Assembly (NCBI GenBank): GCA_963833575.1
Contig: CAWHXY010000004.1
Location: 928,001-992,000, forward strand
Length of the DNA stretch: 64,000 bases
From: Candidatus Bathyarchaeota archaeon
Lineage (GTDB): Archaea; Thermoproteota; Bathyarchaeia; Bathyarchaeales; Bathycorpusculaceae
Direction of reading: 5' to 3'
Under the pieces are notes generated by a model. That model saw only the letters and a list, made by a program, of their open reading frames with translations, searched no databases and had not been told where the DNA came from. How positions within the stretch are numbered: the first letter of the stretch is position 1; every line of letters starts with the position of its first letter. Of the stretch, positions 5,548 to 20,979 are shown piece after piece. The position numbers and the translations under genes were made by a program.

Positions 5548-7029
5548 ATGGGCTGTGGTATCTTTGGCGCTATAAACTATGAAAATCAACCTGTGTTTCC
5601 ATATGTTTACTGGGGGTTACGCGCTCAAAATCATCGAGGGCATCAATCGCACGGGTTTCTTACTTTTAGTGATAAAGAATTTTTTACGTATAAAAATTTA
5701 GATTTAGTTCCTAAAGTGAAAAATGATGCCATAAAAGAATGGTTTGGTCGTCTTCCAGGATCAATAGGTATTGGCAACGTACGATATACAACGTCAGGCA
5801 AATGTGATGACGTCTCCATAATTGAGGGTACACAGCCAGTTGTGGCTTCGGTAAATGGCATAAAACTTGCTCTTTCATTTAACGGCAACATTGTTAACAC
5901 TTTGCCGCTGAGAAAAGAAATGTTTGCAAATTTCCCAGACTTTACCTACAGCTGCGATTCAGACATCGTATGCAACAAAATGCTACTAGCCCTAAAACAA
6001 GGCAAAGACCTGCCGTCTGCAGCTAAAATTGTTATGGAAAGTCTAGATGGGGCATTTAGCGTAACAGGTATAACTGGAGAAGGCGACTTTTTCGCTTTCA
6101 AAGATCCACACGGAATAAAACCCTTGTGTGCAGGTCATGACCCAGCAGGCAAAACCTACGCTTTCTCCTCTGAAACCGTAAGTTTAGACATGAACAGTTT
6201 TGTAAGAGACTTTGAATTAAAACCAGGCGAACTAGTAACCGTTTCACAAGACGGATTCAAACGCACCCAACTTATAGAAAACCCGCGCCCAGCATTTTGC
6301 GCCTTCGAATATGCCTATTTTGCGAGACCTGACTCAAGATTTAACGGAAAATACGTTTATGAAATCCGAGAAGACTTCGGAAGAAACATAGTAAAAGAAA
6401 ACCCTCAAATTGTAAAAGAAAGCGACATCATTCTTTCAGTGCCTGAAACCGGCGATGACTCAGCAATGGGCGTCCACGAAGCGTCTGGTTTAAGATGGGA
6501 ACGCGCGTCAAGACGGCACCGCTATGTTACTGAAAGAGCTTTCATACTTCTAAACGTCGAACGCTTTTCCACCATTGATAAGAAAATTAATATTTTAGGC
6601 TCAAAAGTAGATGGAAAACGAGTTATCATCACCGAAGACAGCATAGTCAGAGGAGACACAACCAAAGTAATCATTGATAAACTTCGCAAAGCAGGAGCCA
6701 AAAGTGTTTACGTATTCGTTACTTTCCCACGCATCATTGGCCCATGCTTCTACGGCATCGACATGTCAACCTACGGTCAACTTGTCGGCTCACGGCATGA
6801 TGCAGAAGGAATCGCAAAAATCATAGGTGCAGACGGCGTATGCTACCAATCCATTGAAGCATTAATAGGAGCCACGGGTCAAACAAAAGATCAACTCTGC
6901 CTAGCCTGCATAAACGGAGAATACCCAACGCCATGTGCACAAAAAATGGCGGACGTAATGAAACAAAGATTTGTGAATGGGTATCAAGAAACAACAAGAA
7001 TTTATGAGTCTGAAGAAGTGCAGCCATAA
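5548..7029 (+). CDS. purF: Amidophosphoribosyltransferase, Fe-S type
   Basis: CGIFG Ntn nucleophile, NHRGHQS, GNVRYTTSG, FNGNIVN, CAFEYAYFARPDS, EDSIVRGDT, PCFYGIDM, CLAC. ATG 5548 follows GGAAGGGA; ATG 5521 is an alternative. Confidence 0.96.
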   Translation: MGCGIFGAINYENQPVFPYVYWGLRAQNHRGHQSHGFLTFSDKEFFTYKNLDLVPKVKNDAIKEWFGRLPGSIGIGNVRYTTSGKCDDVSIIEGTQPVVASVNGIKLALSFNGNIVNTLPLRKEMFANFPDFTYSCDSDIVCNKMLLALKQGKDLPSAAKIVMESLDGAFSVTGITGEGDFFAFKDPHGIKPLCAGHDPAGKTYAFSSETVSLDMNSFVRDFELKPGELVTVSQDGFKRTQLIENPRPAFCAFEYAYFARPDSRFNGKYVYEIREDFGRNIVKENPQIVKESDIILSVPETGDDSAMGVHEASGLRWERASRRHRYVTERAFILLNVERFSTIDKKINILGSKVDGKRVIITEDSIVRGDTTKVIIDKLRKAGAKSVYVFVTFPRIIGPCFYGIDMSTYGQLVGSRHDAEGIAKIIGADGVCYQSIEALIGATGQTKDQLCLACINGEYPTPCAQKMADVMKQRFVNGYQETTRIYESEEVQP

Positions 7030-7093
7030 CTGCGGTCGCAAAGCAAATTAAGTGACCCCTTCTATTTTGTCTTAGCGGAAAGGTGTATCTTTA

Positions 7094-8509
7094 ATGGAAA
7101 AAATTGGTGTGCTGGTTGTTTCTTATGGTGCAAGAGAAGTCGCTATGGTTGACGCACTTCTACAAAGCAAAAAATATCAAGTGGAACTCTACATCGCCGA
7201 CAAACAACGAAATCCTTTCAACGCTGAAAAAGCCACCAAACACGTTGTCATTCCAAATCTAGATGTTGAAGAAATCTGCAAATTCGCGCAGGCAAACAGG
7301 GACAAAATAAGTTTTGCGTTAGTCGGATCAGAAAAACCCATTATTGAAGGTATCCGCGACCAAGTAGAAAAACGCACTGGCATACCTGTTATTTGTCCAA
7401 AGCAACAATACGCTATCGAAGTCAGCAAGGTAGAGCAGCGAGTGCTTTTTGACGAAATCGCGCCAGAAGCTAATCCACGCTTCAAAGTTTTCAATCCATC
7501 CGATTACAAAGATGGTTCAGACGTTAAAACAGACGTTTACCATTGGCTAGATGAACTAGATAACCAAGCTGCAGTCAAGCCCGATAAGCCTGCATTGGGT
7601 AAAGGTGTCGGTGTCTGGGGAGATCACTTTGCCAATAGGGAACAACTTTTTGAGCATTTCATGTCTAACTTTCATTATGGCTCAGTTATCATAGAAGAAA
7701 AAATTGATGGCGAAGAATCAAGTTTCATGGCTTTCTGCGACGGTAAACACTTTTCGCCACTTCCAGATACACGTGACTACAAGCGCGCCTTGGACGATGA
7801 CAAAGGACCAAATACTGGCGGAATGGGCTCTTACAAAGATTCTGGCGACAAATTACCATTTTTAACCGCGATGGAACGCGAACAAGAGCTTTTGTTGGCT
7901 AACAAGATTTTCACGGGTTGGAGCTACAAAATCGAAGATGACTCAGCTCTCAGAGGCGTGCCGCTTTATCTTGCTTTTATGCATACTGGTAAAGGAATTA
8001 AAGTTCTTGAGAACAATAGTCGTCCTGGTGACCCAGAAATAATTAATCTTCTTGCTTTAATCAAAGGTGACTTTGTTGATTTATGTTTCAGGATGATTGA
8101 AGGAAGCTTGGGGATTGTTGAGTTGGAAAAGGCTTCTTCTGTTTTAACTTACAAAGTTCCGCCTGATTACGGTGGCTACGCAGACGTATTTCCAAACCAA
8201 GTGGATCAAGCATCTCTTAACTCGCCAGTTGACCTTTCAAAAGCTTATGCATTAACCAAAAAATATGGCAATAAAATCCGAGTTTACCCTGGCTCAATGG
8301 AAGTTAGATACGGCAAAAACTATGCTTTAAAATCCCGTGCAGTTGGAATTTTAGGCATTGGCGACAGCATTGAGGAAGCACGACAAATCAGCCAAGAAGG
8401 TGCTACGGCAATCACGGGCGGCGGCCTATGGAATCGAACAGATATTGCTACAAAGCAGCATATTGCCAAAGCAGTTAGTCACATGGAAAATTTGAGGTGT
8501 AGAGCATGA
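7094..8509 (+). CDS. purD: Phosphoribosylamine-glycine ligase (divergent archaeal type)
   Basis: GKGV, IEEKIDGEESS, DYKRALDDDKGPNTGGMGSY, ENNSRPGDPE. Confidence 0.93.
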   Translation: MEKIGVLVVSYGAREVAMVDALLQSKKYQVELYIADKQRNPFNAEKATKHVVIPNLDVEEICKFAQANRDKISFALVGSEKPIIEGIRDQVEKRTGIPVICPKQQYAIEVSKVEQRVLFDEIAPEANPRFKVFNPSDYKDGSDVKTDVYHWLDELDNQAAVKPDKPALGKGVGVWGDHFANREQLFEHFMSNFHYGSVIIEEKIDGEESSFMAFCDGKHFSPLPDTRDYKRALDDDKGPNTGGMGSYKDSGDKLPFLTAMEREQELLLANKIFTGWSYKIEDDSALRGVPLYLAFMHTGKGIKVLENNSRPGDPEIINLLALIKGDFVDLCFRMIEGSLGIVELEKASSVLTYKVPPDYGGYADVFPNQVDQASLNSPVDLSKAYALTKKYGNKIRVYPGSMEVRYGKNYALKSRAVGILGIGDSIEEARQISQEGATAITGGGLWNRTDIATKQHIAKAVSHMENLRCRA

Positions 8510-9552
8510 AACGTGTTTTTATATCTGATTGTGAAGGGCCAATCTCAAAAAATGATAATGCTTTCGAGTTAGCGTCACATTTTATTCCAAACGGAGACAA
8601 ACTTTTCGCTAACATAAGCAAGTACGACGATGTGCTGGCGGATGTTCTGCAGAAACCAGATTACTCAGCGGGCAGCACATTGAAGCTAATTTTGCCATTC
8701 TTCAAAGCATACGATATCACGGACAAACAGATGGAAGACTTTTCAGAAAAAAACATTGTTTTAGTTGCTAACAGCAAAAACACTCTACGCCATTTACAAG
8801 CTATAGCTAATGCTTTCATCATTAGCACCAGCTATGAACATTACATCAAAGCTTTATGTAAAACACTCAATTTTCCATACAAAAACACGTATTGCACCAA
8901 AATATGCCTAGACAAATACGCTATTACATCAAGAGAAAAGGAACGCCTAAAACAAATTGCGCATGAAATCTCCAAGATGCGCTTAATCGATATACCTCAA
9001 GGAGCAAAATCAGTAAATGCCTTTTCAAACAGCGAACAAGCGATAATTCAGCGTTTAGACGAAATTTTCTGGAATGAAATACCCAAAATGACCGTTGGCA
9101 AAGTAATGACCGATGTGGTTACCGTAGGGGGGAAACAAAAAGCCGAAGCAATTCGTGATGCAGTTAAACGCGTAGGTGCAAGCTTAGAGGATGTAATGTA
9201 TGTGGGAGATAGCATAACCGACGTCGAAGCCTTCAAGCTGGTTCGAACCAACGGCGGCTTAACAGTCTCTTTCAATGGTAACAGTTATGCCGTTAAGAAT
9301 GCTGAAGTAGCGATCTTATCTGAAAACAATGTTGTTACTGGCGTGATTGCTGATTTGTTCTGCAGGTTTGGAAAAGAAAAAACAATCAACACCCTCCGAT
9401 CTTGGGGATTTGAGGCGCTTGAAAACAGCGGCGCAATTGATGTTTCGCCTAAAGCAAAATTAGTAACACCCCAAAATATGGAAATGTTGGTAAAAGAAAG
9501 TAGCGAATTTAGAAAAAATGTGCGCGGCGTAGCCATCGGGAGACTCGGATAA
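8506..9552 (+). CDS. HAD-superfamily hydrolase, EhaR/COG4030-like
   Basis: Motif I FISDCEGP, motif II IISTS, motif III Lys (GKQKAEA), motif IV YVGDSITD, FNGN. The N-terminus DCEGPISKNDNAFEL recalls proteins annotated as Eha subunit R. Confidence 0.82.
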   Translation: MKRVFISDCEGPISKNDNAFELASHFIPNGDKLFANISKYDDVLADVLQKPDYSAGSTLKLILPFFKAYDITDKQMEDFSEKNIVLVANSKNTLRHLQAIANAFIISTSYEHYIKALCKTLNFPYKNTYCTKICLDKYAITSREKERLKQIAHEISKMRLIDIPQGAKSVNAFSNSEQAIIQRLDEIFWNEIPKMTVGKVMTDVVTVGGKQKAEAIRDAVKRVGASLEDVMYVGDSITDVEAFKLVRTNGGLTVSFNGNSYAVKNAEVAILSENNVVTGVIADLFCRFGKEKTINTLRSWGFEALENSGAIDVSPKAKLVTPQNMEMLVKESSEFRKNVRGVAIGRLG

Positions 9553-10461
9553 GTGGCAAAAGCAGAGATAGAGGACACTTACGCTGAAGCCTTTACCGGA
9601 ATATTTTGTCGAATAATAGTAACTGCAGATGATGAGGAAATCTTGCGTAAGGCGGCTGAAGATTCAACAGCAACACCATCCGTTGTAATTGGCAGAACAG
9701 AAGGCGGAGTTGAAAAATACCTCACTCCCAAAGAAACTCCAGACAAACGTTACGGTGCATTATTGCAGTTCTGGGGAGAAATAAACCCTAAAAAAACTTT
9801 TGCTGAGTCACTCAAAAAGTTTGAAACCGAACTTTCTTACCGTATCAGACAAGACATCCTAGTCAAGCCCTTCACTGCCGTATTTGATTCTCTACCCACT
9901 GCTGAAGGTAAAATTGATATGATGGAAACTGTTGGGCACTGCGGCGACGGCTTTGAATGGGTTGAAAAGCGCGATGGAAGAGAAGTTATCGTCGTGCCTT
10001 TGATGGTTCCTGACTTTGTCATCGAGCATTACTTAGGCTACAGTCGCGGTGTTATGGGTGGGAACTTTTGGATAATTTGCAAAACAAAACAAGCCCTAAA
10101 ACAAGCAGGAAAAAAAGCCTTAGCCGCAATCCACACAGTTGAAGGCGTGGTTACGCCGTTTGATGTGTGTTCCGCGGGCTCCAAACCAGAAACCCATTTT
10201 CCCAAAATTGGTCCAACAACCAACCATCTCTATTGCCCATCGCTAAAGGAACGTTTAGGTAAAGACTCGCTTGTTCCCGAAGGCGTAGGATATATAGCCG
10301 AAATAGTTTACGACGGCATCTCCTTACAAGCCATTAAGCAAGCAACAAAAGCAGGAATAGAAGCCGTTTTGAATATTAATGGTGTTGTGAAAGTTTCCGC
10401 TGGCAACTACGGCGGCAAACTAGGCGAATACAAAATCCCGTTACTGGAGTTGTTTTCATGA
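9553..10461 (+). CDS. ftr: Formylmethanofuran:tetrahydromethanopterin formyltransferase family protein (Ftr paralogue, EhaS-like)
   Basis: IEDTYAEAF, ETPDKR, RIRQDIL, GDGFE, GVMGGNF, SAGSK, PTTNHLYCPSLK, EIVYDG, VSAGNYGGKLG. Confidence 0.92.
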   Translation: MAKAEIEDTYAEAFTGIFCRIIVTADDEEILRKAAEDSTATPSVVIGRTEGGVEKYLTPKETPDKRYGALLQFWGEINPKKTFAESLKKFETELSYRIRQDILVKPFTAVFDSLPTAEGKIDMMETVGHCGDGFEWVEKRDGREVIVVPLMVPDFVIEHYLGYSRGVMGGNFWIICKTKQALKQAGKKALAAIHTVEGVVTPFDVCSAGSKPETHFPKIGPTTNHLYCPSLKERLGKDSLVPEGVGYIAEIVYDGISLQAIKQATKAGIEAVLNINGVVKVSAGNYGGKLGEYKIPLLELFS

Positions 10462-11372
10462 CTAAATTTGATGTCGTTGGTTTTGGCGCACTTAATGTTG
10501 ATGTTATTTTTAAAGTTGATAGACTCGCAAAAGCAGAAGAGGAAAGCTTCGTCGAAGATTACACTGAAGCCTGCGGTGGCTCAGCTGCAAATACAGTAGT
10601 CGCCTTGGCCAGGCTTGGCTGCAAGACAGGGTTCATAGGAAAAGTAGCTGATGATCGAGAAGGTAAACTTCAAATTAACTGTTTTGACAATGAAGGTGTT
10701 GACACCAGCGGAATCATTCAGGCAAAAAAGGGCAAAAGCGGTTCAGTAATGGGGTTCGTGGACAAGAAAGGCGCAAGAACCCTCTACATCAACTCTGGCG
10801 TCAACGACACAATCGAGCCGCGCGAAATAGATTATGGTTATGTTTCTCAAACAAAATTTATACATTACTCGTCTTTTGTTGGGGAAAAATCTCTTCGTGC
10901 CCAGAAAAAGCTCCTAGCTGCTTTGCCTAACACTATAAAAATAAGTTTTGACCCTGGATCGGTCTATGCACAGAAGGGTTTTACAGCCATAGAACCAATT
11001 ATTCGAAGTACTCATGTTTTAATGCCTAATGTCCTTGAACTCGAACTTTTAACTGGGGAAACGGATTACCGTAAAGGCGCCGATTTAATGATTGATGCGG
11101 GCGTAAAAATTGTGGCAGTTAAGCTTGGCGAAAAAGGTAGCTACGTTACTGACGGTCAAGACCAGCTTACAATAGAACCTTTCAAAGTTAAAGCGGTCGA
11201 CACAACTGGTGCTGGCGATGCTTTCTGTGCAGGCTTCCTTTACGGTTTAATTAACAAGAAAAGCCTCTTTGAATGTGGGCAGATTGGGAATTTTGTAGCT
11301 TCCAGAAGCGTGATGGCGTTGGGTGCCCGTGCAGGCTTGCCCTATGTTAAGGATTTAGCATTTCTTTACTAG
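10458..11372 (+). CDS. PfkB/ribokinase-family (nucleoside or sugar) kinase, EhaT-like
   Basis: GGSAANTVVALARLG, FDPG, PNVLE, VKLGEKGS, DTTGAGDAFCAGF. Confidence 0.93.
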   Translation: MTKFDVVGFGALNVDVIFKVDRLAKAEEESFVEDYTEACGGSAANTVVALARLGCKTGFIGKVADDREGKLQINCFDNEGVDTSGIIQAKKGKSGSVMGFVDKKGARTLYINSGVNDTIEPREIDYGYVSQTKFIHYSSFVGEKSLRAQKKLLAALPNTIKISFDPGSVYAQKGFTAIEPIIRSTHVLMPNVLELELLTGETDYRKGADLMIDAGVKIVAVKLGEKGSYVTDGQDQLTIEPFKVKAVDTTGAGDAFCAGFLYGLINKKSLFECGQIGNFVASRSVMALGARAGLPYVKDLAFLY

Positions 11373-12173
11373 ATTATCAATTATGCTTTGGAAGATTAGT
11401 TTTCCGTCGCCATACTGTAGCATCTGATGTTCGCGAGTCCAGTTGGGTTGTTGCCACCAGTACATTGATCTCTCTGGGTGAGGCATTAAACCAAAAATGT
11501 TTCCTTCCCTGTTACATATTCCAGCAATATCATAAGTGGAGCCGTTTGGATTAATTGGATAACTGCCGTTTGCAATGTTGCCGTTTTTGTCGCAGTATCG
11601 AAAAACAACCATATCGTTATCGATTAATTTTGCCAGCATCTCTTCTTCTTTTTCCTTAGGAAACAATAACCTGCCTTCTCCATGGGCAATAGGCATCCCT
11701 AACACTTTGCCAACTGGAATTTTATTCGTAAAAATGCTTTTTCCTTTATTTTCATGCTTAAGATAAACCCATTGGCACTTGAAGCCCGATGGCTCATTTG
11801 TAGTCAATGTTACTTCTGGATAGGTGCTTACTCCTTCCAAACCTGGAAGTAAACCGTATTCAACAAGGATTTGGAAGCCGTTGCAAATGCCCAGAATTGG
11901 TCTGCCTTCATCGATGAAAGTTTCCATTTCTTTTCCTAATTTGACTGAGAGGTGTCTTGCAAAAATCACGCCGGAACGCACATAATCGCCGAACGAGAAG
12001 CCGCCTGGAAAAACCAGCACTTGATAGTCCAGCAGGTTTTTGCGTTTCATTAACTCGTTAACATGTAAAGTTTCTGCTTTAACACCTATTTCTTGAAATG
12101 CCCGTTGGGTTTCGGCGTCACAGTTGGTACCGCCGACACGCATAACGCAGACTTTGATTTCTTCTTGGTTCAT
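11355..12173 (-). CDS. purQ: FGAM synthase glutaminase subunit
   Basis: GTNCD, PGGFSFGDY, GICNGFQIL, AHGEG, GLMPHPER; start ATG 12173 overlaps the purL stop (TAATG). Confidence 0.96.
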   Translation of the reverse strand: MNQEEIKVCVMRVGGTNCDAETQRAFQEIGVKAETLHVNELMKRKNLLDYQVLVFPGGFSFGDYVRSGVIFARHLSVKLGKEMETFIDEGRPILGICNGFQILVEYGLLPGLEGVSTYPEVTLTTNEPSGFKCQWVYLKHENKGKSIFTNKIPVGKVLGMPIAHGEGRLLFPKEKEEEMLAKLIDNDMVVFRYCDKNGNIANGSYPINPNGSTYDIAGICNREGNIFGLMPHPERSMYWWQQPNWTREHQMLQYGDGKLIFQSIIDNLVKKC

Positions 12174-14554
12174 TAGGATTCCCCGCTTAACGTTTTCTTC
12201 CAAGCATGCCGCAACTCGACAAGTGAAGCATCGACCACCGTTTTCTGATTTAATCCGTGAATGGCCAGTTTCTCATTTTTGGTTACTTTCCCAATTTGGG
12301 CACACATTTTACCCTTCATCAAAGCTTCAAATTCTTTTCTGTCTTGTTCCGCCACTTCCATAAGGAAACGGCTATTTGACTCCGAAAATAAGATAAAGTC
12401 ATTCCGTTCTAGTGGTTTGCCAGGCACTTTTGATAAATCCAGTTCTAACCCATAGCCGCCTGCAAATGCCATCTCCGCTGCAGCTACTGCTAATCCTCCT
12501 TCTGAGAGGTCGTGGCATGATTTGACTAAACCAGAATCGATGGCTTTGGTTACGGCTTTGAATGTGCGTTTGGCTTTTGCTCCTTTGACTTTGGGTACGT
12601 TTGCGCCTAAGTAGCCTTTGAGTTTGTAGTATTCTGAGCCGCCAAGTTCGTTGAAGGTTTCTCCGATAATGTAGAGTAGGTTGCCTGGTGCTTTCAAATC
12701 CATGGATGTGGTGTATTGAAGATTTGGAATCACGCCAACTGCTGTAATAAGAAGAGTCGGTGTGATTGGACCTAGAGGAGACTCGTTATAGAGACTGTCT
12801 TTTCCAGAGATGAATGGCGTCCTAAACGCTGTTGCAAAATCGTAGCAGGCTTCACAAGCTTTAACCAGTGAACCCAATCGCTCTGGTTTCTCAGGATTTC
12901 CCCATGTAAAATTATCTAGCAGAGCAATTCTTCTACCGCCAACAGCAATGTTATTTCTCACTGCCTCGTCAATTGCTGAAGCCGCCATCCAATAAGCATC
13001 AATCTTACCGTAATTCGGGTTCATGCCGCAAGAAATCGTTAAACCTTTCCATGAATCATCAAGGGGTTTTAGAACAGCTGCATCGTTTGGCCCTGCATAT
13101 TCTCCCTGAAGAGGCTTGAGTGTGGTGTTTCCTTTTACTTCGTGGTCGTATGTTCGGATGACGCTTTCTTTGCTGGCAATGTTTGGCGAAGAAAGAAGCT
13201 GCATTAAGCTTTCAGTTAGGTTCTGCGGTTCAGGGAACTCTGGTTCAATGAAACTTTGTTTTTCAATGGTTGCGATTTTCATGCTTTTGCATGGATTGAA
13301 CAGAAATGCCATTTCCATGTCTGCAACCTTTTCGCCGTTAAAACTGAGTTGCAAACGGCGTTCGATTGTCAGTTTGCCAATTGCAGTGGCTTGAACATCT
13401 TCCTTCTCAAAAACTGCCATAACTTGCTCGAGATTTTCCGGTGGAACTGTTATAAGCATTCTCTCTTGTGATTCAGAAATGTAAATTTCCCATGGAGCCA
13501 AGCCCTGATGCTTCAAAGGCACCTTGCCAAGGTCAATTGCAACTCCGCAGTCAAATCTCTCGCCAGTTTCTCCGACTGCTGAAGATAAGCCTCCTCCGCC
13601 AAGGTCAGTTGTCGCCGACGCCAATTGTAAATCGCGGATTTCTATTATTGCCCGCTTCACTTTCTCTTCTTCGATTGGGTCGGCGATTTGTACGGCAGGA
13701 CGGGATATTTCTTCTGATTTCTCAGTTAATTCGGCTGAGGCAAATGTTACGCCGTGGATTCCGTCACGACCAGTTTTTCCTCCTGCTACGACGATTATGT
13801 GTTCTGGTTTAGCATTTTTTGTGAATTTGCTTAATGGTAAAATCCCGATGCATCCGCAATGTACAGTGACGTTGCCTGTGTAGCTTTCGTCAAAATATAT
13901 TGCTCCGTTAACAGTTGGGATGCCCATGTTATTTCCATACGCGCTAATTCCCGCGGTGACGCCCATGTAAACGTATTTTGGATGTTTGACTCCTGCGGGA
14001 AGCTTGTTATAATCATAGTCTAATGGTCCGAAGCCTAAAACATCCGTGCAGGCGATTGGATCAGCCCATACACCAAGGATATCTCGGATGACGCCTCCGA
14101 CCCCTGTAGCTGCCCCACCGAAAGGCTCAACTGCAGACGGATGATTGTGAGTTTCAACTTTGGCTGCTATTCCATAGCCTTTGTCAAATTTTACGATCCC
14201 TGCGTTATCTTCAAAAACGCTAAAGCACCAAGGGGCTTTGATTTCTTTGGTGGCTTTTTGAATGTAGGTTTTGAATAGGCTGTCGATTTCTTTGCCGTCA
14301 ATTTGGATTTTTCCTTTGAATGTTTTGTGGTAGCAGTGTTCGGACCACGTTTGACTAATGGTTTGCAGTTCCAAGTCTGTTGGGTTTCTGCCTTCAGATT
14401 TGAAGTAGGTTTGAATGCTTTTCATTTCTTCTAAGCTTAAGCCCAAAGCTAGTTCATTGCTGATTTCAATTAGCTGTTGGTCAGTTGCTGTGGTCAGTGC
14501 AGCTTCGTAAAGTGAGTAGTTTGCTTCTCGTTGGATGTAGAGGTTAGCGTTCAT
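12173..14554 (-). CDS. purL: FGAM synthase synthetase subunit
   Basis: WSEHCYHK, KVETHNHPSAVEPFGGAATGVGGVIRD, DLGGGG, SESQERM, HDLSEGGL. Confidence 0.97.
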   Translation of the reverse strand: MNANLYIQREANYSLYEAALTTATDQQLIEISNELALGLSLEEMKSIQTYFKSEGRNPTDLELQTISQTWSEHCYHKTFKGKIQIDGKEIDSLFKTYIQKATKEIKAPWCFSVFEDNAGIVKFDKGYGIAAKVETHNHPSAVEPFGGAATGVGGVIRDILGVWADPIACTDVLGFGPLDYDYNKLPAGVKHPKYVYMGVTAGISAYGNNMGIPTVNGAIYFDESYTGNVTVHCGCIGILPLSKFTKNAKPEHIIVVAGGKTGRDGIHGVTFASAELTEKSEEISRPAVQIADPIEEEKVKRAIIEIRDLQLASATTDLGGGGLSSAVGETGERFDCGVAIDLGKVPLKHQGLAPWEIYISESQERMLITVPPENLEQVMAVFEKEDVQATAIGKLTIERRLQLSFNGEKVADMEMAFLFNPCKSMKIATIEKQSFIEPEFPEPQNLTESLMQLLSSPNIASKESVIRTYDHEVKGNTTLKPLQGEYAGPNDAAVLKPLDDSWKGLTISCGMNPNYGKIDAYWMAASAIDEAVRNNIAVGGRRIALLDNFTWGNPEKPERLGSLVKACEACYDFATAFRTPFISGKDSLYNESPLGPITPTLLITAVGVIPNLQYTTSMDLKAPGNLLYIIGETFNELGGSEYYKLKGYLGANVPKVKGAKAKRTFKAVTKAIDSGLVKSCHDLSEGGLAVAAAEMAFAGGYGLELDLSKVPGKPLERNDFILFSESNSRFLMEVAEQDRKEFEALMKGKMCAQIGKVTKNEKLAIHGLNQKTVVDASLVELRHAWKKTLSGES

Positions 14555-14802
14555 TTATGCTCCTCAACATTTATTGTGTAATTATCTTTGGTTGGGTTTG
14601 CCAAAAGGCGCTTGCTCATGTCTTCCGCTTTTGCTTTGGCTTCGGCAATTGTTGAGGCATCAAGAGTGACTGTGTAAACTTTGCTAACGTCTACGCTTTC
14701 GACTTTGTATCCGAGTTCTTTGAGTAAATGGGATGTTGTTTCTCCTTCAGGATTGCTGTGGCCTGGCTTTAAGCTGACCTCTATTTTCGCTAGGTATTTC
14801 AT
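14551..14802 (-). CDS. purS: FGAM synthase subunit PurS
   Basis: LKPGHSNPEG and LLANP motifs; 83 aa from ATG 14802; overlaps the purL start. Confidence 0.9.
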   Translation of the reverse strand: MKYLAKIEVSLKPGHSNPEGETTSHLLKELGYKVESVDVSKVYTVTLDASTIAEAKAKAEDMSKRLLANPTKDNYTINVEEHK

Positions 14803-14860
14803 AAAGCCTTTAAATCGAGGTTTAGGATTTAAAGACTTTCGCCATAAAGAATGCAAAACT

Positions 14861-15940
14861 TTACGTTAAAACCAATTTTTTGTTTTGGAACTTTATTTCA
14901 ACCGTTTGTTTGTCTGTTACTTTTCCTATTATCTCAGGCTTTAAGTCGCCTTGCTCAAGCGTATTAATTGCTTTGTCGGTCTCTTTTTTGTCTACGATTA
15001 TGCCAAAACCCCAACCCATATTGAATGTTTTGAACATTTCTTCATCTGTGATTGTAAAGCCGAGTTCAGCTGCTGTTTTTTGGATCAAGCCAAAAATCGG
15101 TTGTGGCTTAAAATTGTTGAATTCGAAGCCTATTCCAGGCGAGACACTAACAAGGTTATTGAATTTCATGTAAGCGTCGCCTGTTATGTGTACAGCTCCT
15201 TTGACTTTCACTTCACTGGCTAGTTTGAGTAAGGGTTTAACATAGATTTTAGTGGGTTCTAATGCTTCCAAAACGATTTCTCTATCCAATCCTTTGGGGA
15301 TATCGTTGAGTTCGTATTTTCCTCCCCATTCTTTAAAGAGGATTTTTCTTGCCATTGTTATGCCGTTGCTATGCAATCCGCTGCTCGCTAAACCTATAAT
15401 TGGGTCACCTGGTTTGATGTTTTCTCCAGTTATGATTCTTTGTTTTTCAACTTGACCGACTGAGGCGACGACCATGTCAAACCCAACCTTTTCGGTTACC
15501 CCTTTAATTATTTCAGCTACGTCGCCTGTTTCTCCATTAGTAACTGGACATTCAGATTCAGCTGCGCCTTGAATAATTCCTTTCAGCCACTCTTTTACAA
15601 GCAGTGGGTTACTTTCTTGTGCATGTATATTGTCTGCGATTGCAAGTGGCTTAGCTCCTGATCGAATTACATCATTAACGACCATAGCAACTGCATCAAT
15701 GCCGATTGTGTCATATTTCCTGGCTAATTGTGCTAAGAGAACTTTGGTGCCTACTCCTTCAATTTCAAGATCCAAAAACAAATTTTCTGCAATTGGAAAA
15801 ATATTGCCATAAGGTAAATGCATGATGCCGCCATAAAGGCTGTGCTTGTATGTTTCTTTCAGGTTCTGCAGCGCCTTTTTTGATTCAACACGTTGTTTTC
15901 GGTTAACGCCTGCATCAGTATAAGTAAAGTTTTTGGGCAT
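14861..15940 (-). CDS. purM: AIR synthetase
   Basis: YTDAGV, EGVGTK, DAVAMVVND, GETG, SSGLHSNG, HITG, EMFKTFNMGWG. Confidence 0.96.
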   Translation of the reverse strand: MPKNFTYTDAGVNRKQRVESKKALQNLKETYKHSLYGGIMHLPYGNIFPIAENLFLDLEIEGVGTKVLLAQLARKYDTIGIDAVAMVVNDVIRSGAKPLAIADNIHAQESNPLLVKEWLKGIIQGAAESECPVTNGETGDVAEIIKGVTEKVGFDMVVASVGQVEKQRIITGENIKPGDPIIGLASSGLHSNGITMARKILFKEWGGKYELNDIPKGLDREIVLEALEPTKIYVKPLLKLASEVKVKGAVHITGDAYMKFNNLVSVSPGIGFEFNNFKPQPIFGLIQKTAAELGFTITDEEMFKTFNMGWGFGIIVDKKETDKAINTLEQGDLKPEIIGKVTDKQTVEIKFQNKKLVLT

Positions 15941-16080: not shown

Positions 16081-16917
16081 TTGCCCAATCCCAAATATCA
16101 TATCTACTTAGAATATTCTGAGCTAGATAAGTCTGGAGTGCGCTTCAATATTTCTCAAGAGGAACTTAATCGAACCTTCGCCACACCCTTCAATGCCAAC
16201 CAACCCTTTTGGTTCGCTGGTAGACTTCTCAACCCCATCAAAGCCTCTAAAGTTGTACTCTTCTGGTCGTATGAAACAGCCGATAAACTAAAGCTGCCTA
16301 ACCAAGAAAGCATTGTAGCTGTCAAAGACAAAAAATATCTAATCGAAAGCATTATCAAAGGCAAAGTCAAAGGGGCGTACCTTTGCACAGAAAAATTCTT
16401 AGAGACACCAGAGAGAGCTACTGTACCCACTCAATCGGTAGAGGCTTCTTTGGGAAATACCCGGCGCAGAATTTTCGTTGTTTCTGGCACTGACGATGTA
16501 ATGAAACAAGCTCTTACTGGGTCTTTGACCAAACTTTTGCTATCGCCGGTTATAATTCATGAAGAGCCTGGTTTAGGCAGAAAAATAATAGAACATTTCA
16601 CAGACTACAATGACGTGAAATTTGCCCTAGTTTTGCTCTCCCCAGATGATCATGTTTACTCTAGGGCTGATCCATTCACAAAAAGCAAGCTAAAGCCTCG
16701 TCAAGATGTTATTTTCCTACTTGGCTTCCTGATAGGCGCGCTCGGCAAAGGCAACGTACTTGTATTCTTCAGAGAACACGAAAACTTTGAAATCCCTCTT
16801 GATTTTGAAGGAATAAAATTCACAGCATTCGACGACCGTGACAGTTGGAAACTTGCACTAATACGGGAACTAACTAAAAGCGGGTACACAGTCGACGGAA
16901 AAAGAATTCTAAAATAA
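16081..16917 (+). CDS. Protein with a C-terminal TIR-like domain (COG4271/CAP12-PycTIR type), active site degenerate
   Basis: IFVVSGTD...PVIIHEEPGLGRKIIEHF...FALVLLSPDD...RQDVIFLLGFLIGALG...EIPLDFEG matches the family pattern; N-terminal ~125 aa unassigned. Confidence 0.8.
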   Translation: MPNPKYHIYLEYSELDKSGVRFNISQEELNRTFATPFNANQPFWFAGRLLNPIKASKVVLFWSYETADKLKLPNQESIVAVKDKKYLIESIIKGKVKGAYLCTEKFLETPERATVPTQSVEASLGNTRRRIFVVSGTDDVMKQALTGSLTKLLLSPVIIHEEPGLGRKIIEHFTDYNDVKFALVLLSPDDHVYSRADPFTKSKLKPRQDVIFLLGFLIGALGKGNVLVFFREHENFEIPLDFEGIKFTAFDDRDSWKLALIRELTKSGYTVDGKRILK

Positions 16918-17011: not shown

Positions 17012-17084
17012 GCGGTCGTAGTCTAGTTCGGTAGGACATCAGCTTCCCAAGCTGACGACCCGGGTTCAAATCCCGGTGACCGCA
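17012..17084 (+). tRNA. tRNA-Gly (CCC)
   Basis: Acceptor GCGGTCG/TGACCGC, D arm GTC..GAC, anticodon arm TCAGC-TTCCCAA-GCTGA, T arm CCGGG-TTCAAAT-CCCGG; no intron; complete CCA not encoded. Confidence 0.96.
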
Positions 17085-17364
17085 CCTTAATTCACTAAAA
17101 GAAGCTGGCTTTGAGCTTATAGCGTCTTATTGAAATCCCTAAGAAACTTAGCCTTTGTATTAAAATTATTCAAGAAACCTGCATAACTGAGAATCACGCC
17201 TTGGTAAATCTTGGCTTTCTTCTGATTTGATCTTTCAATAAATATTTGTAATTTTAATCAAAGCTATCCTGATAACGCAAATATTCAATCTCTTTTTGGC
17301 TAAGGAACTTAATTTCAGGCGCAGTTGGTAGATGCAACGGTGAGTACCCTTTTTTCATGTGATC

Positions 17365-18345: not shown

Positions 18346-20979
18346 ATGGAAAAAACAAGAAATAGAATTGTAACTATTGTGATTGCGATATTTTTAATGA
18401 TTTCAATGTCAGCTTCGATAATGCTAGTGTCGAATGCTAGTGCTCATACTCCTGCTTGGCAGATTCCAACATACGCATATGTGCAGGCTGTGCCTAACCC
18501 TGTGGGTGTAGGCCAGCAAGCGATCATATATATGTGGGTTGACAAGATACCCGATGGAGCAGAACTAGGCAACAGCATTCGATTCCAGAACTACCAACTT
18601 ACCATTACTGCACCTGACAAAACAGTAACAACAAAGACTTTTGCAACTGTCCAAGATCCCACGTCAAATCAGCACTATTATTTCACTCCAACTCAAACCG
18701 GCACATACACCCTTAACTTTACATTCCCAGGATACGCATACACATATACAGGGCTCCTCGCAGGCTTCTTCGGTCCTCCCGCGCCAAGCGATTACGTAAA
18801 TGATACCTATTTGGCCAGTTCAGCATCTACAACGTTTACTGTCCAGAACTCAGCTATACCTACAATTCCAGCCAATCCGCTTCCATCAGCTTATTGGACA
18901 CGCCCAATTTATGGAGAGAACCCTAACTGGTACTCAATTTCATCAAACTGGCTAGGCATCAATGCACCAGGATATACTTCAGGTTACCCTGGTGATGCTG
19001 TGGGTCCTCAAACGGGCCATGTTATGTGGACTAGGTCGGTTCAAAGCGGTGGAGTGGTCGGCGGTAACAACTTTGAAATTCAAGGCGCCACTTACTTCGA
19101 GGGTTCTGCCTACGCTCAAAGATTTGAAGAACCAATAATACTTGATGGAAAACTCTACTATGCAGAACCAATATCGTTCGGGGGCAACAACTACGGGCCA
19201 ACGGACTGCGTTGATCTGCGCACTGGACAGCTTATTTGGTCTCGCACTGATGTACCGCAGCCATCCTTCGGTCTCATATTTGACGTTCAGGAACCCAACC
19301 AACACGGAACTTACCCACCAATACTAATTGATGCTGTTGGGCAAAGCTTCTTTTCGACTGCGTCTGTCTGGAGAGCTTTTGATGCAGACACAGGAGATCC
19401 GATGTTCAACGTAACTAACATTCCTTCAGGCGTAACGGCTATGGGCGCAAATGGGGAATACTTGATATATGTCTTGACAAATGATGGCACTGTTGCACAT
19501 CCTCAGTATTATTTAGCTCAATGGAACTCGTCTAACCTGTGGTCCGGTCAATACAACGGCGCATCAACAACACCATCCGTAGTTCCACCTATAACTGACG
19601 GGAGCAACCCCCTTATGTACGACTGGAACATTTCGATACCCTCACTAAACACCCTGACCTCAACATCTTCTATAGTTGCAGCGTTCACCAACAATATGCT
19701 GATTGGCATGAGCGGCTCCTACCCTGGAGCTCCTAGTTTGTTCAGTGTAGCAAGCTGGTCTCCCTACACATACTTCGGTGTAAACCTTAACGCTACTAAA
19801 GGTGCAGTCGGTTCGATACTGTGGACAAATACTGTTCAACCGCCAGCGGGCAATATTAGTGTCTCATATGCCGGGGCTGATCCAACGGTCGGTGTCTTCG
19901 CTGAAACATATAAGGAAACGATGCAGCGAGTAGGCTTCAGTATGGCGACAGGCAAGCAAATTTGGGGTCCAGTTGGCGATCAAGTGGCCTTCCAATACTA
20001 CAGCACTACTGGATACTACAGCGGCGGAATAGGCGGATGCGTACTTGCTTACGGTAAACTCTACAGCGCTGGATATGGCGGAATAGTCTACTGTTATGAT
20101 CTGAACAATGGGAACCTACTTTGGACTTATGGTAATGGTGGCGAGGGCAACAGTACTAGTATGGATTATGGTGTACGTGGTAACTATCCAACTAGCATAT
20201 ATGCGGTTGGCAACGGCGTGGTGTACACGATTACTACGGAGCATACTGTTCAAACACCAATTTACAAGGGTGCAGAGACACGCGGCATTAACGCTACAGA
20301 CGGAACGGAAATCTATACTCTCGATGATTACTGTGGCTCGTTTGCTACTGCAACAGCTGCTATCGCAGACGGCTTTGCAACAGTTTTCAATGGCTATGAT
20401 AACCAAATTTATAGCATAGGCAGAGGACCTAGCGCCTTAACAGTAGAAGCGCCAAAGACATCAAACGAACTGGGCAAATCGTTGGTAATTGACGGTTCAG
20501 TACTGGATATTTCTGCAGGTACAAAACAGGCACAGCAGGCAGCTGATTTCCCTAACGGTGTTCCAGTGGCATCTGACGCGAGCATGAAGGATTGGATGGG
20601 CTATGTTTACCAACAGAAACCCTTGCCCAGTAACTTTACTGGTGTTCAGGTGACGATCGACGTTTTAGACTCTAATGGCAACTACCGAAACATTGGCACT
20701 GTTAATACTGATGCAACCGGCATGTACAGTTTGTCTTGGAAACCTAACATTTCAGGCAACTACACTGTCGTCGCTACTTTCCACGGCACCAACGCTTATT
20801 GGCCATCGTATTCAGAAACCACTTTCGTAGTAGATCCGGCAGCAGCTACACCAGCTCCAACGACAGCGCCAGTAGCTTCAAACACTGACACATACATTCT
20901 GGCTTCAGCTATCGCAATCATAGTCGTGCTAATCATCGTGGGCGCAATCCTGATGATGATGGTACGCAAACGACCATAA
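18346..20979 (+). CDS. Secreted, C-terminally membrane-anchored PQQ-like beta-propeller protein (paralogue 1)
   Basis: Signal peptide, Ig-like N- and C-terminal parts, DLRTGQLIW, ATGKQIWG and DLNNGNLLW propeller repeats, P/T linker, TM helix ending RKRP. Confidence 0.88.
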   Translation: MEKTRNRIVTIVIAIFLMISMSASIMLVSNASAHTPAWQIPTYAYVQAVPNPVGVGQQAIIYMWVDKIPDGAELGNSIRFQNYQLTITAPDKTVTTKTFATVQDPTSNQHYYFTPTQTGTYTLNFTFPGYAYTYTGLLAGFFGPPAPSDYVNDTYLASSASTTFTVQNSAIPTIPANPLPSAYWTRPIYGENPNWYSISSNWLGINAPGYTSGYPGDAVGPQTGHVMWTRSVQSGGVVGGNNFEIQGATYFEGSAYAQRFEEPIILDGKLYYAEPISFGGNNYGPTDCVDLRTGQLIWSRTDVPQPSFGLIFDVQEPNQHGTYPPILIDAVGQSFFSTASVWRAFDADTGDPMFNVTNIPSGVTAMGANGEYLIYVLTNDGTVAHPQYYLAQWNSSNLWSGQYNGASTTPSVVPPITDGSNPLMYDWNISIPSLNTLTSTSSIVAAFTNNMLIGMSGSYPGAPSLFSVASWSPYTYFGVNLNATKGAVGSILWTNTVQPPAGNISVSYAGADPTVGVFAETYKETMQRVGFSMATGKQIWGPVGDQVAFQYYSTTGYYSGGIGGCVLAYGKLYSAGYGGIVYCYDLNNGNLLWTYGNGGEGNSTSMDYGVRGNYPTSIYAVGNGVVYTITTEHTVQTPIYKGAETRGINATDGTEIYTLDDYCGSFATATAAIADGFATVFNGYDNQIYSIGRGPSALTVEAPKTSNELGKSLVIDGSVLDISAGTKQAQQAADFPNGVPVASDASMKDWMGYVYQQKPLPSNFTGVQVTIDVLDSNGNYRNIGTVNTDATGMYSLSWKPNISGNYTVVATFHGTNAYWPSYSETTFVVDPAAATPAPTTAPVASNTDTYILASAIAIIVVLIIVGAILMMMVRKRP

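Follow-up and report, generated by a model that had tools for sequence, protein, structure and literature searches.

Which enzyme converts glycinamide ribonucleotide (GAR) to formylglycinamide ribonucleotide (FGAR), the third step of purine synthesis, in archaea that have neither PurN nor PurT? The question is raised by a compact block of purine genes at 5.5-15.9 kb of a 64,000-nucleotide stretch of a Bathyarchaeia genome (C4:928001-992000, the whole of which is called the window below; the genome measures 2.75 Mb in 8 contigs and is 94.3% complete). Directly after purD, the block holds three genes (the trio) for a haloacid dehalogenase (HAD)-superfamily protein, a divergent paralogue of the formyltransferase Ftr (Ftr2) and a PfkB-family kinase. 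The cluster probably identifies the long-sought missing enzyme of purine step 3. We consider it likely that HAD-Ftr2-PfkB supplies the conversion of GAR to FGAR in archaea that use tetrahydromethanopterin (H4MPT) and methanofuran and lack PurN and PurT, and this is the best explanation of the data. Comparative genomics makes it very likely that Ftr2 is the step-3 formyltransferase and that its formyl group comes from the archaeal C1 pool. The claim is one of functional analogy with PurN and PurT, not of membership in their families.

The original prediction for this stretch had read the Ftr paralogue as a GAR transformylase that draws on the archaeal C1 pathway, and the computational tests that we ran on sequences support this interpretation. 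In this genome purN and purT are absent and a second ftr is present, the linkage to pur genes is conserved, and none of the outcomes that had been named as contrary to the prediction was found.

Arrangement of the purine block

The genes purF-purD-HAD-Ftr2-PfkB on the forward strand converge with purM-purS-purL-purQ on the reverse strand, as follows (window coordinates).

5548..7029, forward: purF, amidophosphoribosyltransferase, step 1 (TIGR01134, 312 bits; GATase_7)
7094..8509, forward: purD, GAR synthetase, step 2 (GARS_A/N/C; TIGR00877, 221 bits, cut-off of 288 not reached)
8506..9552, forward: HAD-superfamily phosphatase-like protein of the EhaR/AF1437 family, proposed GAR 5'-phosphatase (weak HAD Pfam matches; 1Y8A)
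9553..10461, forward: Ftr2, divergent Ftr paralogue, proposed step-3 formyltransferase (FTR, PF01913, 148.5 bits; FTR_C, PF02741, 179.7 bits)
10458..11372, forward: PfkB/ribokinase-family kinase, EhaT-like, proposed 5'-kinase (PfkB, PF00294, 181.9 bits)
11355..12203, reverse: purQ, glutaminase subunit of formylglycinamidine ribonucleotide (FGAM) synthase, step 4 (NF002252, 321.7 bits, above cut-off)
12173..14554, reverse: purL, large subunit of FGAM synthase, step 4 (TIGR01736, 697 bits)
14551..14856, reverse: purS, step 4 (TIGR00302, 70 bits; PF02700)
14861..15940, reverse: purM, aminoimidazole ribonucleotide (AIR) synthetase, step 5 (TIGR00878, 257.9 bits)

The open reading frame (ORF) of purF begins at TTG 5485, and its likely start is ATG 5548, giving the N-terminus MGCGIFG. 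The junctions were read from the sequence: purD and HAD overlap by ATGA at 8506, the TAA stop of HAD is directly followed by the GTG start of Ftr2 (9550-9555), and Ftr2 and PfkB overlap by ATGA at 10458. ORF calls, family matches and the junction letters thereby confirmed the gene order, the convergence and the contacts at 8506, 9552/9553 and 10458 that had been described for this block.

Step 3 is the only gap seen in this genome

The whole genome was searched for the known step-3 enzymes, as the original prediction had proposed, and purN and purT proved absent. There were no matches to the PurN model TIGR00639 and none at E<=0.01 to Formyl_trans_N (PF00551), and the PurT model TIGR01142 gave only weak ATP-grasp matches (47 bits or less, cut-off 502). 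Neither a Formyl_trans_N fold with the N-x-H...D triad nor a PurT-type ATP-grasp was found in the trio proteins or in the genome. The genome search gave no PurH, and two tandem PurP genes cover the second formylation step, that of aminoimidazole carboxamide ribonucleotide (AICAR). Because PurF, PurD, PurL, PurQ, PurS, PurM and two PurP were found, and neither a PurN-type domain nor PurT, step 3 is the only gap seen. The tandem PurP-like pair (G000:C1:32639-34278; 228 and 251 bits to DUF1297) resembles the pair of cluster Ib and cluster II described in the available text of Brown 2011, whose second member has no known function.

The genome has two Ftr genes, Ftr2 in the window and the second, canonical ftr that had been suggested as a search target, which lies at C4:342803-343669, 585 kb apart from Ftr2, and falls in the clade of canonical Ftr (Ftr1). 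The absence of fwd, mch and hydrogenase genes from the window, noted earlier, agrees with a search that covered part of the window ORFs and did not include mtd: FwdA is on contig C7, Mch on contig C6, and homologues of the small and large hydrogenase subunits are on contig C7, unlinked to the trio. Since FwdA, Mch and canonical Ftr are present, both formyl-methanofuran and formyl-H4MPT should exist in the organism.

Ftr2 forms a clade separate from canonical Ftr

The FTR and FTR_C domains span residues 3-300 of Ftr2, and both lobes are complete. The protein passes the subfamily model NF002554 (335.5 bits, cut-off 297) but fails the Ftr equivalog model TIGR03119 (239.3 bits, cut-off 292.6). Its closest relatives are from named Bathyarchaeia, and the public annotations seen for Ftr2 relatives all read Ftr. 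Trees were computed with FastTree from 58 full-length representatives and with IQ-TREE from 80 sequences taken from genomes (55 Ftr2, 25 Ftr1). Both trees separate the Ftr2 clade from Ftr1 at 100% support (SH-aLRT in IQ-TREE) and place the other Ftr copy of this genome in the Ftr1 clade; in the IQ-TREE tree the Ftr2 sequences of Methanobacteriaceae are sister to those of Bathyarchaeia. Ftr1 occurs alongside the Ftr2-clade gene in 23 of 28 named genomes outside Bathyarchaeia.

The catalytic glutamate is kept: E250 corresponds to the YEIV-motif Glu of 1M5H, its conservation reaches at least 90% in each clade, and it is invariant in alignment A1. We take this residue to be Glu245 in Methanopyrus kandleri numbering and Glu252 in FhcD. 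The Ftr2 signature consists of R99, C130, E213 and P221, present in at least 90% of Ftr2 sequences, where Ftr1 has G, F, G and A at 96-100% conservation; one loop is deleted relative to Ftr1. The tree that had been called for thus gave a fully supported separate clade that retains the catalytic Glu and has lost residues invariant in Ftr1. The catalytic role of the Ftr Glu is described in the accessible part of PMC6926001, and most coenzyme-binding Ftr residues are reported to be conserved in FhcD in the text available for it.

Ftr2 is almost complementary to PurN and PurT in two samples of genomes

The distribution of Ftr2 was analyzed in 121 Bathyarchaeia genomes that were at least 80% complete. 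Matches to the Ftr2 query were bimodal: one group started at 51% identity and 271 bits, and the other did not exceed 45% identity and 204 bits. The Ftr2 type is present in 48 of the 121 genomes (one partial match included). Among the 102 genomes with purD, 46 carry Ftr2; none of these has a PurN-family match, and one (G001) has a weak PurT-like match of 175 bits. The 56 purD-bearing genomes without Ftr2 comprise 42 with a PurN-family match, 11 with a PurT-like protein and 3 with neither (PurN-family matches over the cut-off number 13 in the whole Bathyarchaeia sample). All three solutions, Ftr2, PurN and PurT, occur within a single coded family, f11.

A second sample was composed of 151 genomes, at least 85% complete, from the phylum of a Methanocellales-labelled genome. 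Ftr2 is present in 65, of which 61 lack both PurN and PurT and 4 have PurN, and 83 of the 86 genomes without Ftr2 have PurN and/or PurT. Likewise, 23 of the 28 named non-Bathyarchaeia genomes with an Ftr2-clade gene lack both enzymes; the named genomes include Methanobacteriaceae, Methanophagales (anaerobic methanotrophic archaea of group 1, ANME-1), Alkanophaga, Archaeoglobaceae, Hadarchaeota, Hydrothermarchaeota and Asgard lineages. The profiling suggested for this clade therefore showed Ftr2 to be near-exclusive with purN and purT in both samples.

Two further observations concern the neighbouring enzymes. PurD of most Ftr2-bearing Bathyarchaeia scores 220-270 bits against TIGR00877, under the cut-off, and that of most PurN/PurT genomes 300-500 bits; G031 has the high-scoring PurD type beside HAD-Ftr2, and the split may reflect lineage or co-adaptation. 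There is also a divergent PurN-like subfamily of about 275-320 amino acids, whose loop reads SGSG[TS]N and whose HPAD motif is followed by an insertion (81-102 bits against PurN). It was seen in G047, G012, G086, G104, G024, G110, G061 and G056, with second copies in G097 and G046, sometimes directly after purD and sometimes beside a canonical PurN.

The trio occupies the slot after purD

Positions were counted by hand from match coordinates. In 42 of the 48 Bathyarchaeia genomes with Ftr2, purD lies 1.1-1.7 kb upstream on the same strand, a distance that matches the length of the HAD gene. Of the 44 Bathyarchaeia with a PurN-family gene, 15 have it immediately after purD, and PurT is in this place in 4 of the 12 genomes with PurT; PurN, PurT or HAD-Ftr2-PfkB share the slot just downstream of purD in this group. 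The trio is intact in 27 of 30 Bathyarchaeia loci. Across 80 named loci, HAD-Ftr2-PfkB is found in 50, with purD adjoining in 43 and the whole cluster in 31, and Ftr2-PfkB only in 5. The check for recurrent pur linkage was thus positive, with purD-HAD-Ftr2-PfkB in Bathyarchaeia and in an Asgard genome: locus L124 (Borrarchaeum) reads purF-purD-HAD-Ftr2-PfkB-purL-purQ-purM at only 28-43% identity.

In Methanobacteriaceae loci the trio has another setting. Genes for DUF2105, an NADH-dehydrogenase-like protein, the small and large hydrogenase subunits and two polyferredoxins are followed by HAD-Ftr2-PfkB; the same order of the three is present in loci L092-L094 and L125-L127. The trio had been named as the end of the eha operon, and its order in a Methanobacteriaceae-type locus, after hydrogenase genes and two polyferredoxins, bears this out. 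In the available text of Kaster 2011, the eha operon closes with EhaS (Ftr) and EhaT (ribokinase), which are counted among the EhaA-T subunits since they are cotranscribed with ehaA-R.

Ftr2 also appears to have been exchanged between lineages. In four genomes of the second phylum (G210, G175, G233 and G153), Ftr2 has 72-74% identity and is nested in the Bathyarchaeia clade. Remnants of a Bathyarchaeia-type HAD C-terminus, 31-34 residues long, stand beside Ftr2 in G233, G153 and G175 (L187, L189, L190), and an N-terminal remnant of PfkB in G233; each of the four genomes has its own HAD homologue elsewhere. The nested Ftr2, the remnants and the separate HAD together suggest that the formyltransferase was replaced by a foreign copy and that its function was kept; the remnants indicate that a portion of the trio was transferred and that the genes next to Ftr2 then decayed.

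An open frame of about 3,100 codons, unbroken over L106:20-9406, stands upstream of a solitary Ftr2 in Pyrohabitans.

The HAD and PfkB proteins accompany Ftr2

The HAD protein is homologous to AF1437 of Archaeoglobus fulgidus (PDB 1Y8A, E 2.7e-31). Its predicted model (predicted local distance difference test score 93.7) aligns with 1Y8A at template-modelling scores of 0.83/0.92, and the next neighbours are HADs of the phosphoserine-phosphatase type. The motifs D8-x-E10-G-P, S107-T108, K212 and G234-D-S-I-x-D239 are invariant or at least 90% conserved in 36 homologues. With these four motifs and, in the predicted model, a Rossmann-like core with a cap, the gene belongs to the HAD superfamily. 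Motif I is a D-x-E-G-P variant with Glu where most phosphatases have the second Asp, and motif II is S-T-S. The protein is a putative GAR 5'-phosphatase.

In the kinase, the PfkB domain covers residues 5-295 and the DTTGAGDAF motif contains the catalytic GAGD. The best NCBIfam match is ribokinase (TIGR02152, 176.8 bits against a cut-off of 299.65), which is not an equivalog assignment; ribose-1-phosphate kinases score 136-152 bits, and all 24 NCBIfam matches are under cut-off. The protein may act as the 5'-kinase by which the phosphate is put back. None of eight trio proteins that were looked up by exact match had an informative name. An Atlas search found a look-alike cluster automatically named EhaR, which serves as a lead only.

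HAD follows Ftr2 closely among genomes. It is present in all 48 Bathyarchaeia with Ftr2 and in 4 of the 73 without, in 24 of the 28 named non-Bathyarchaeia Ftr2 genomes, and in 10 of 10 Ftr2 genomes of the second phylum compared with 0 of 10 PurN/PurT genomes of the same phylum. HAD and PfkB often form an adjacent pair elsewhere in the genome where Ftr2 is solitary, and in Promethearchaeota loci the HAD-PfkB pair once follows purF (G130); in another genome, G146, HAD lies near purD. HAD and PfkB probably belong to the purine step, not to the cofactor.

In one genome, G052, the C-terminal two thirds of HAD are within a 604-amino-acid frame (L184:7393-9207) that has an N-terminal FAD/NAD-binding and 4Fe-4S region. 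The frame is followed by Ftr2 and PfkB. The genome, a single contig that is 86% complete, yielded no purD.

A PurN-like variant keeps HAD and PfkB

The four Bathyarchaeia that have HAD and lack Ftr2 carry a PurN-like formyltransferase (FT) instead. In two of the four the genes form a purF-purD-FT-HAD-PfkB-FolD operon (L179:3338-7204 in G034 and L180:3353-7333 in G028), adjoined in L179 by an AICAR transformylase gene, and this arrangement looks like a folate-type version of the same module. The variant proteins keep the N-x-H and Asp catalytic residues. In all four, the loop SGxG[ST][ND] is replaced by [ST]GRDx[AD]; the loop is intact in 18 of 18 PurN-type proteins from genomes without HAD. 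That HAD and PfkB are retained when a PurN-like enzyme replaces Ftr2 suggests that the acceptor is glycinamide riboside rather than GAR, and the altered loop of a variant keeping both proteins favours a riboside route.

Proposed route and alternative explanations

The module may work on a dephosphorylated intermediate, a tentative proposal to which we give a little under an even chance. HAD would remove the 5'-phosphate of GAR, Ftr2 would formylate the free aminomethyl group of glycinamide riboside by the same chemistry as on the aminomethyl group of methanofuran, and PfkB would re-phosphorylate formylglycinamide riboside to FGAR for PurLQS. The cost of the route would be one ATP, equal to that of PurT. 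The donor would more plausibly be 5-formyl-H4MPT than formyl-methanofuran, because the glycinamide amine would stand in for the methanofuran amine. In Methanobacteriales the trio is EhaR/S/T, and the enzymes that draw C1 units off into purines would there be expressed together with the hydrogenase replenishing the C1 cycle. The riboside route is supported by the gene order purD-HAD-Ftr2-PfkB, which matches the proposed order of reactions, by the retention of the phosphatase-kinase pair with either formyltransferase fold together with the altered loop of the PurN-like variant, and by the likeness of PfkB to ribokinases and other kinases that phosphorylate O5 of a ribose with a C1 substituent. 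Taken as a whole, a third FGAR route that is non-homologous to PurN and PurT, with an Ftr-fold enzyme, a formyl group from H4MPT or methanofuran, a phosphatase before and a kinase after, is possible and, in our estimate, slightly more doubtful than not.

Several points weigh against these proposals. The case rests on distribution, position and sequence. Related genomes are not independent, so the two-by-two tables overstate significance, and the Fisher p-value obtained for the second phylum is given no weight. PurN above the cut-off occurs beside Ftr2 in nine genomes, which fall in few subclades of the tree: five of the 28 named genomes (four Promethearchaeota and one other archaeon) and four of the second phylum (G155, G166, G177 and G219, the last with a full trio). 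Two Bathyarchaeia genomes with Ftr2, G052 and G063, gave no purD match. Ftr2 is solitary in 25 of the 80 named loci, and its neighbours there included no recurring informative family (105 ORFs, 23 loci). That the SGxGSN loop holds the GAR 5'-phosphate is presumed from E. coli PurN. The phosphatase-kinase detour looks wasteful; formyl transfer from formyl-methanofuran to an amine should be about isoenergetic, so thermodynamics demands no ATP. The available text of Brown 2011 (PMC3261824) also refers to the opinion that N10-formyl-H4MPT does not function as a formyl donor. A donor bound to H4MPT could reconcile the conflicting labelling data for Methanosphaera and Methanobrevibacter quoted in that text, an argument drawn in part from Methanosphaera physiology.

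The simplest chemistry would be that Ftr2 formylates GAR itself, as in the original prediction, with HAD and PfkB as accessories for salvage of dephosphorylated intermediates, ribose 5-phosphate supply or flux regulation. It shares with our best explanation the claim that Ftr2 is the formyltransferase, and it would account for the frequent separation of Ftr2 from HAD and PfkB (the 25 solitary loci) and for the transferred Ftr2 being kept in G233, G153 and G175 while the flanking HAD, and in G233 PfkB too, decayed. We consider it rather unlikely, as HAD is found in all Ftr2 genomes checked with good assemblies (48 of 48 and 10 of 10) and genomes without Ftr2 lack it in 69 of 73 and in 10 of 10 cases; HAD and PfkB are also retained in an operon with the PurN-like enzyme of altered loop, and the four genes are translationally coupled. 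It is improbable that Ftr2 is only an isoenzyme of canonical Ftr for anabolic C1 flow, feeding for example an unrecognised GAR formyl ligase, so that pur linkage would reflect C1 supply. Passing the Ftr subfamily model (335 bits), keeping the catalytic Glu, being annotated as Ftr in public and co-occurring with PurN in 9 genomes would all fit such a role. Yet Ftr2 fails the equivalog model (239 vs 292.6 bits), forms a separate clade that coexists with Ftr1 in 23 of 28 named genomes and has Ftr1-invariant residues replaced; it sits precisely where PurN or PurT is otherwise found and is complementary to both, a candidate for the ligase is not known, and PurP is single in Methanobacteriales. In addition, Ftr1 and not Ftr2 is the highly transcribed copy in ANME according to the accessible text of Chadwick 2022.

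A role of the trio in biosynthesis or repair of H4MPT or methanofuran, a pathway with ribose-phosphate steps, is very improbable. H4MPT biosynthesis has unassigned phosphatase and ribosyl steps, and all holders of the trio use H4MPT, but the trio is complementary to PurN and PurT and sits in their position. Ftr1 occurs without Ftr2 or HAD in 57 of 121 Bathyarchaeia, so the cofactor pathway does not need the trio. We give the least credence of all to the trio being subunits or maturation factors of the energy-converting hydrogenase Eha. The trio closes the eha operon in Methanobacteriaceae loci, where cotranscription is reported (Kaster 2011, in its available text); here, in contrast, it is inside a purine cluster and the hydrogenase homologues are on C7, unlinked to it, which argues against hydrogenase subunits, and 43 of 80 named loci tie it to purD and not to hydrogenase genes. 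A PurP paralogue was also considered as the missing enzyme and was rejected: by the accessible text of Brown 2011, a PurP pair stands alongside PurT in Thermococci and Crenarchaeota, and Methanobacteriales have a single PurP, so that a paralogue cannot fill their gap. HAD-Ftr2-PfkB as the supplier of step 3 stays our preferred explanation.

Genes flanking the purine block

The flanks are unrelated to the purine block over about 5 kb before it and 12 kb after it. Before the block are an ABC-2 transporter, proteins with domains of unknown function (DUFs), Bax1-I and a glyoxalase; after it are a TIR protein, a tRNA, a TrmB regulator, large beta-propeller proteins and topoisomerase VI. The TIR gene (16081-16917, forward) is divergent from purM, 140 bp past the purM start codon, and lies just before tRNA-Gly (17012-17086). 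It codes for a 278-amino-acid protein with a CAP12/Pycsar-type TIR domain (80 bits), possibly a stand-alone defence effector. Two large paralogues of 877 and 860 amino acids (18346-20979 and 21593-24175, forward) have PQQ-like beta-propeller and Ig-like domains and are probably secreted or surface proteins.

Significance and comparison with known systems

De novo purine synthesis is core metabolism, and Methanothermobacter, one of the H4MPT-using archaea for which no step-3 enzyme had been found, is a proven purine prototroph. The absence of PurN and PurT from Methanobacteriales, Methanopyrus and Archaeoglobus, which the original prediction had mentioned, is stated in the accessible text of the curated survey Brown 2011 (PMC3261824), where neither gene is found in two Archaeoglobi, four Methanobacteriales and Methanopyrus kandleri (the text prints 'Methanomicrobiales' but names Methanobacteriales species). 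The available text of Chadwick 2022 notes the GAR formyltransferase gap for ANME-1 and, in a separate section, that ANME Ftr2 groups with those of Archaeoglobales, M. kandleri and M. marburgensis; it does not connect the gap with the Ftr2 paralogues. In a literature search for a link between Ftr2/EhaS and purines, which did not extend to subscription journals or to supplements (including Chadwick S2 Data and the Brown additional files), no paper was found to make it. EhaR/S/T, Ftr and purine are absent from Adam 2022 (PMC9635834), and the searchable papers assign no function to EhaR/S/T. Eha itself is described as supplying anaplerotic reduced ferredoxin for methanogenesis in the accessible text of PMC3585446.

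If the proposal is true, it would fill a gap that was pointed out in 2011 for Methanobacteriales, Archaeoglobi and Methanopyrus and more recently for ANME-1, and the answer would extend to Bathyarchaeia and some Asgard archaea. EhaR/S/T and AF1437 would gain a function, and the anaplerotic role of Eha would be tied to a C1 drain into purine C8. It would show that the Wood-Ljungdahl/Wolfe C1 pool is a direct source of purine C8, might uncover a pathway segment at the nucleoside level, and would correct the widespread annotation as 'Ftr', through which C1 metabolism or methanogenesis is inferred too often in metagenome-assembled genomes. The old gap becomes a concrete and testable hypothesis of three genes, and the folate-type variant (PurN-like enzyme, HAD, PfkB and FolD) is a version testable in E. 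coli.

Compared with canonical Ftr and FhcD (1FTR, 1M5H, 1M5S, 2FHJ, 6S6Y), Ftr2 belongs to the same FTR/FTR_C fold families at about 38-42% identity, matches solved archaeal Ftr structures with E-values between 1e-48 and 1e-53, and shares the catalytic Glu. The proposed chemistry is alike, with a formyl group passing between N5 of a pterin and a primary aminomethyl group; the differences are that Ftr2 lies in purine or eha operons and that its proposed acceptor is a purine intermediate, not methanofuran. With PurN, Ftr2 shares the proposed step and, in Bathyarchaeia, the slot directly after purD, but the fold of Ftr2 is unrelated, the C1 carrier is another one, and PurN needs no phosphatase or kinase. 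PurT would likewise share the step, the slot after purD (in four Bathyarchaeia) and, if the riboside route is right, the ATP cost; PurT is an ATP-grasp ligase acting on free formate, whereas here the ATP would go to re-phosphorylation.

With EhaR/EhaS/EhaT of Methanothermobacter the trio shares the three families and their order, and identities to the Methanobacteriaceae homologues are 42-43% for HAD, 58-63% for Ftr2 and 47-48% for PfkB. Those genes end a hydrogenase operon, whereas here the trio lies in a purine cluster between purD and purQ. AF1437 (1Y8A), the homologue of the HAD protein, is a structural-genomics entry without an assigned function.

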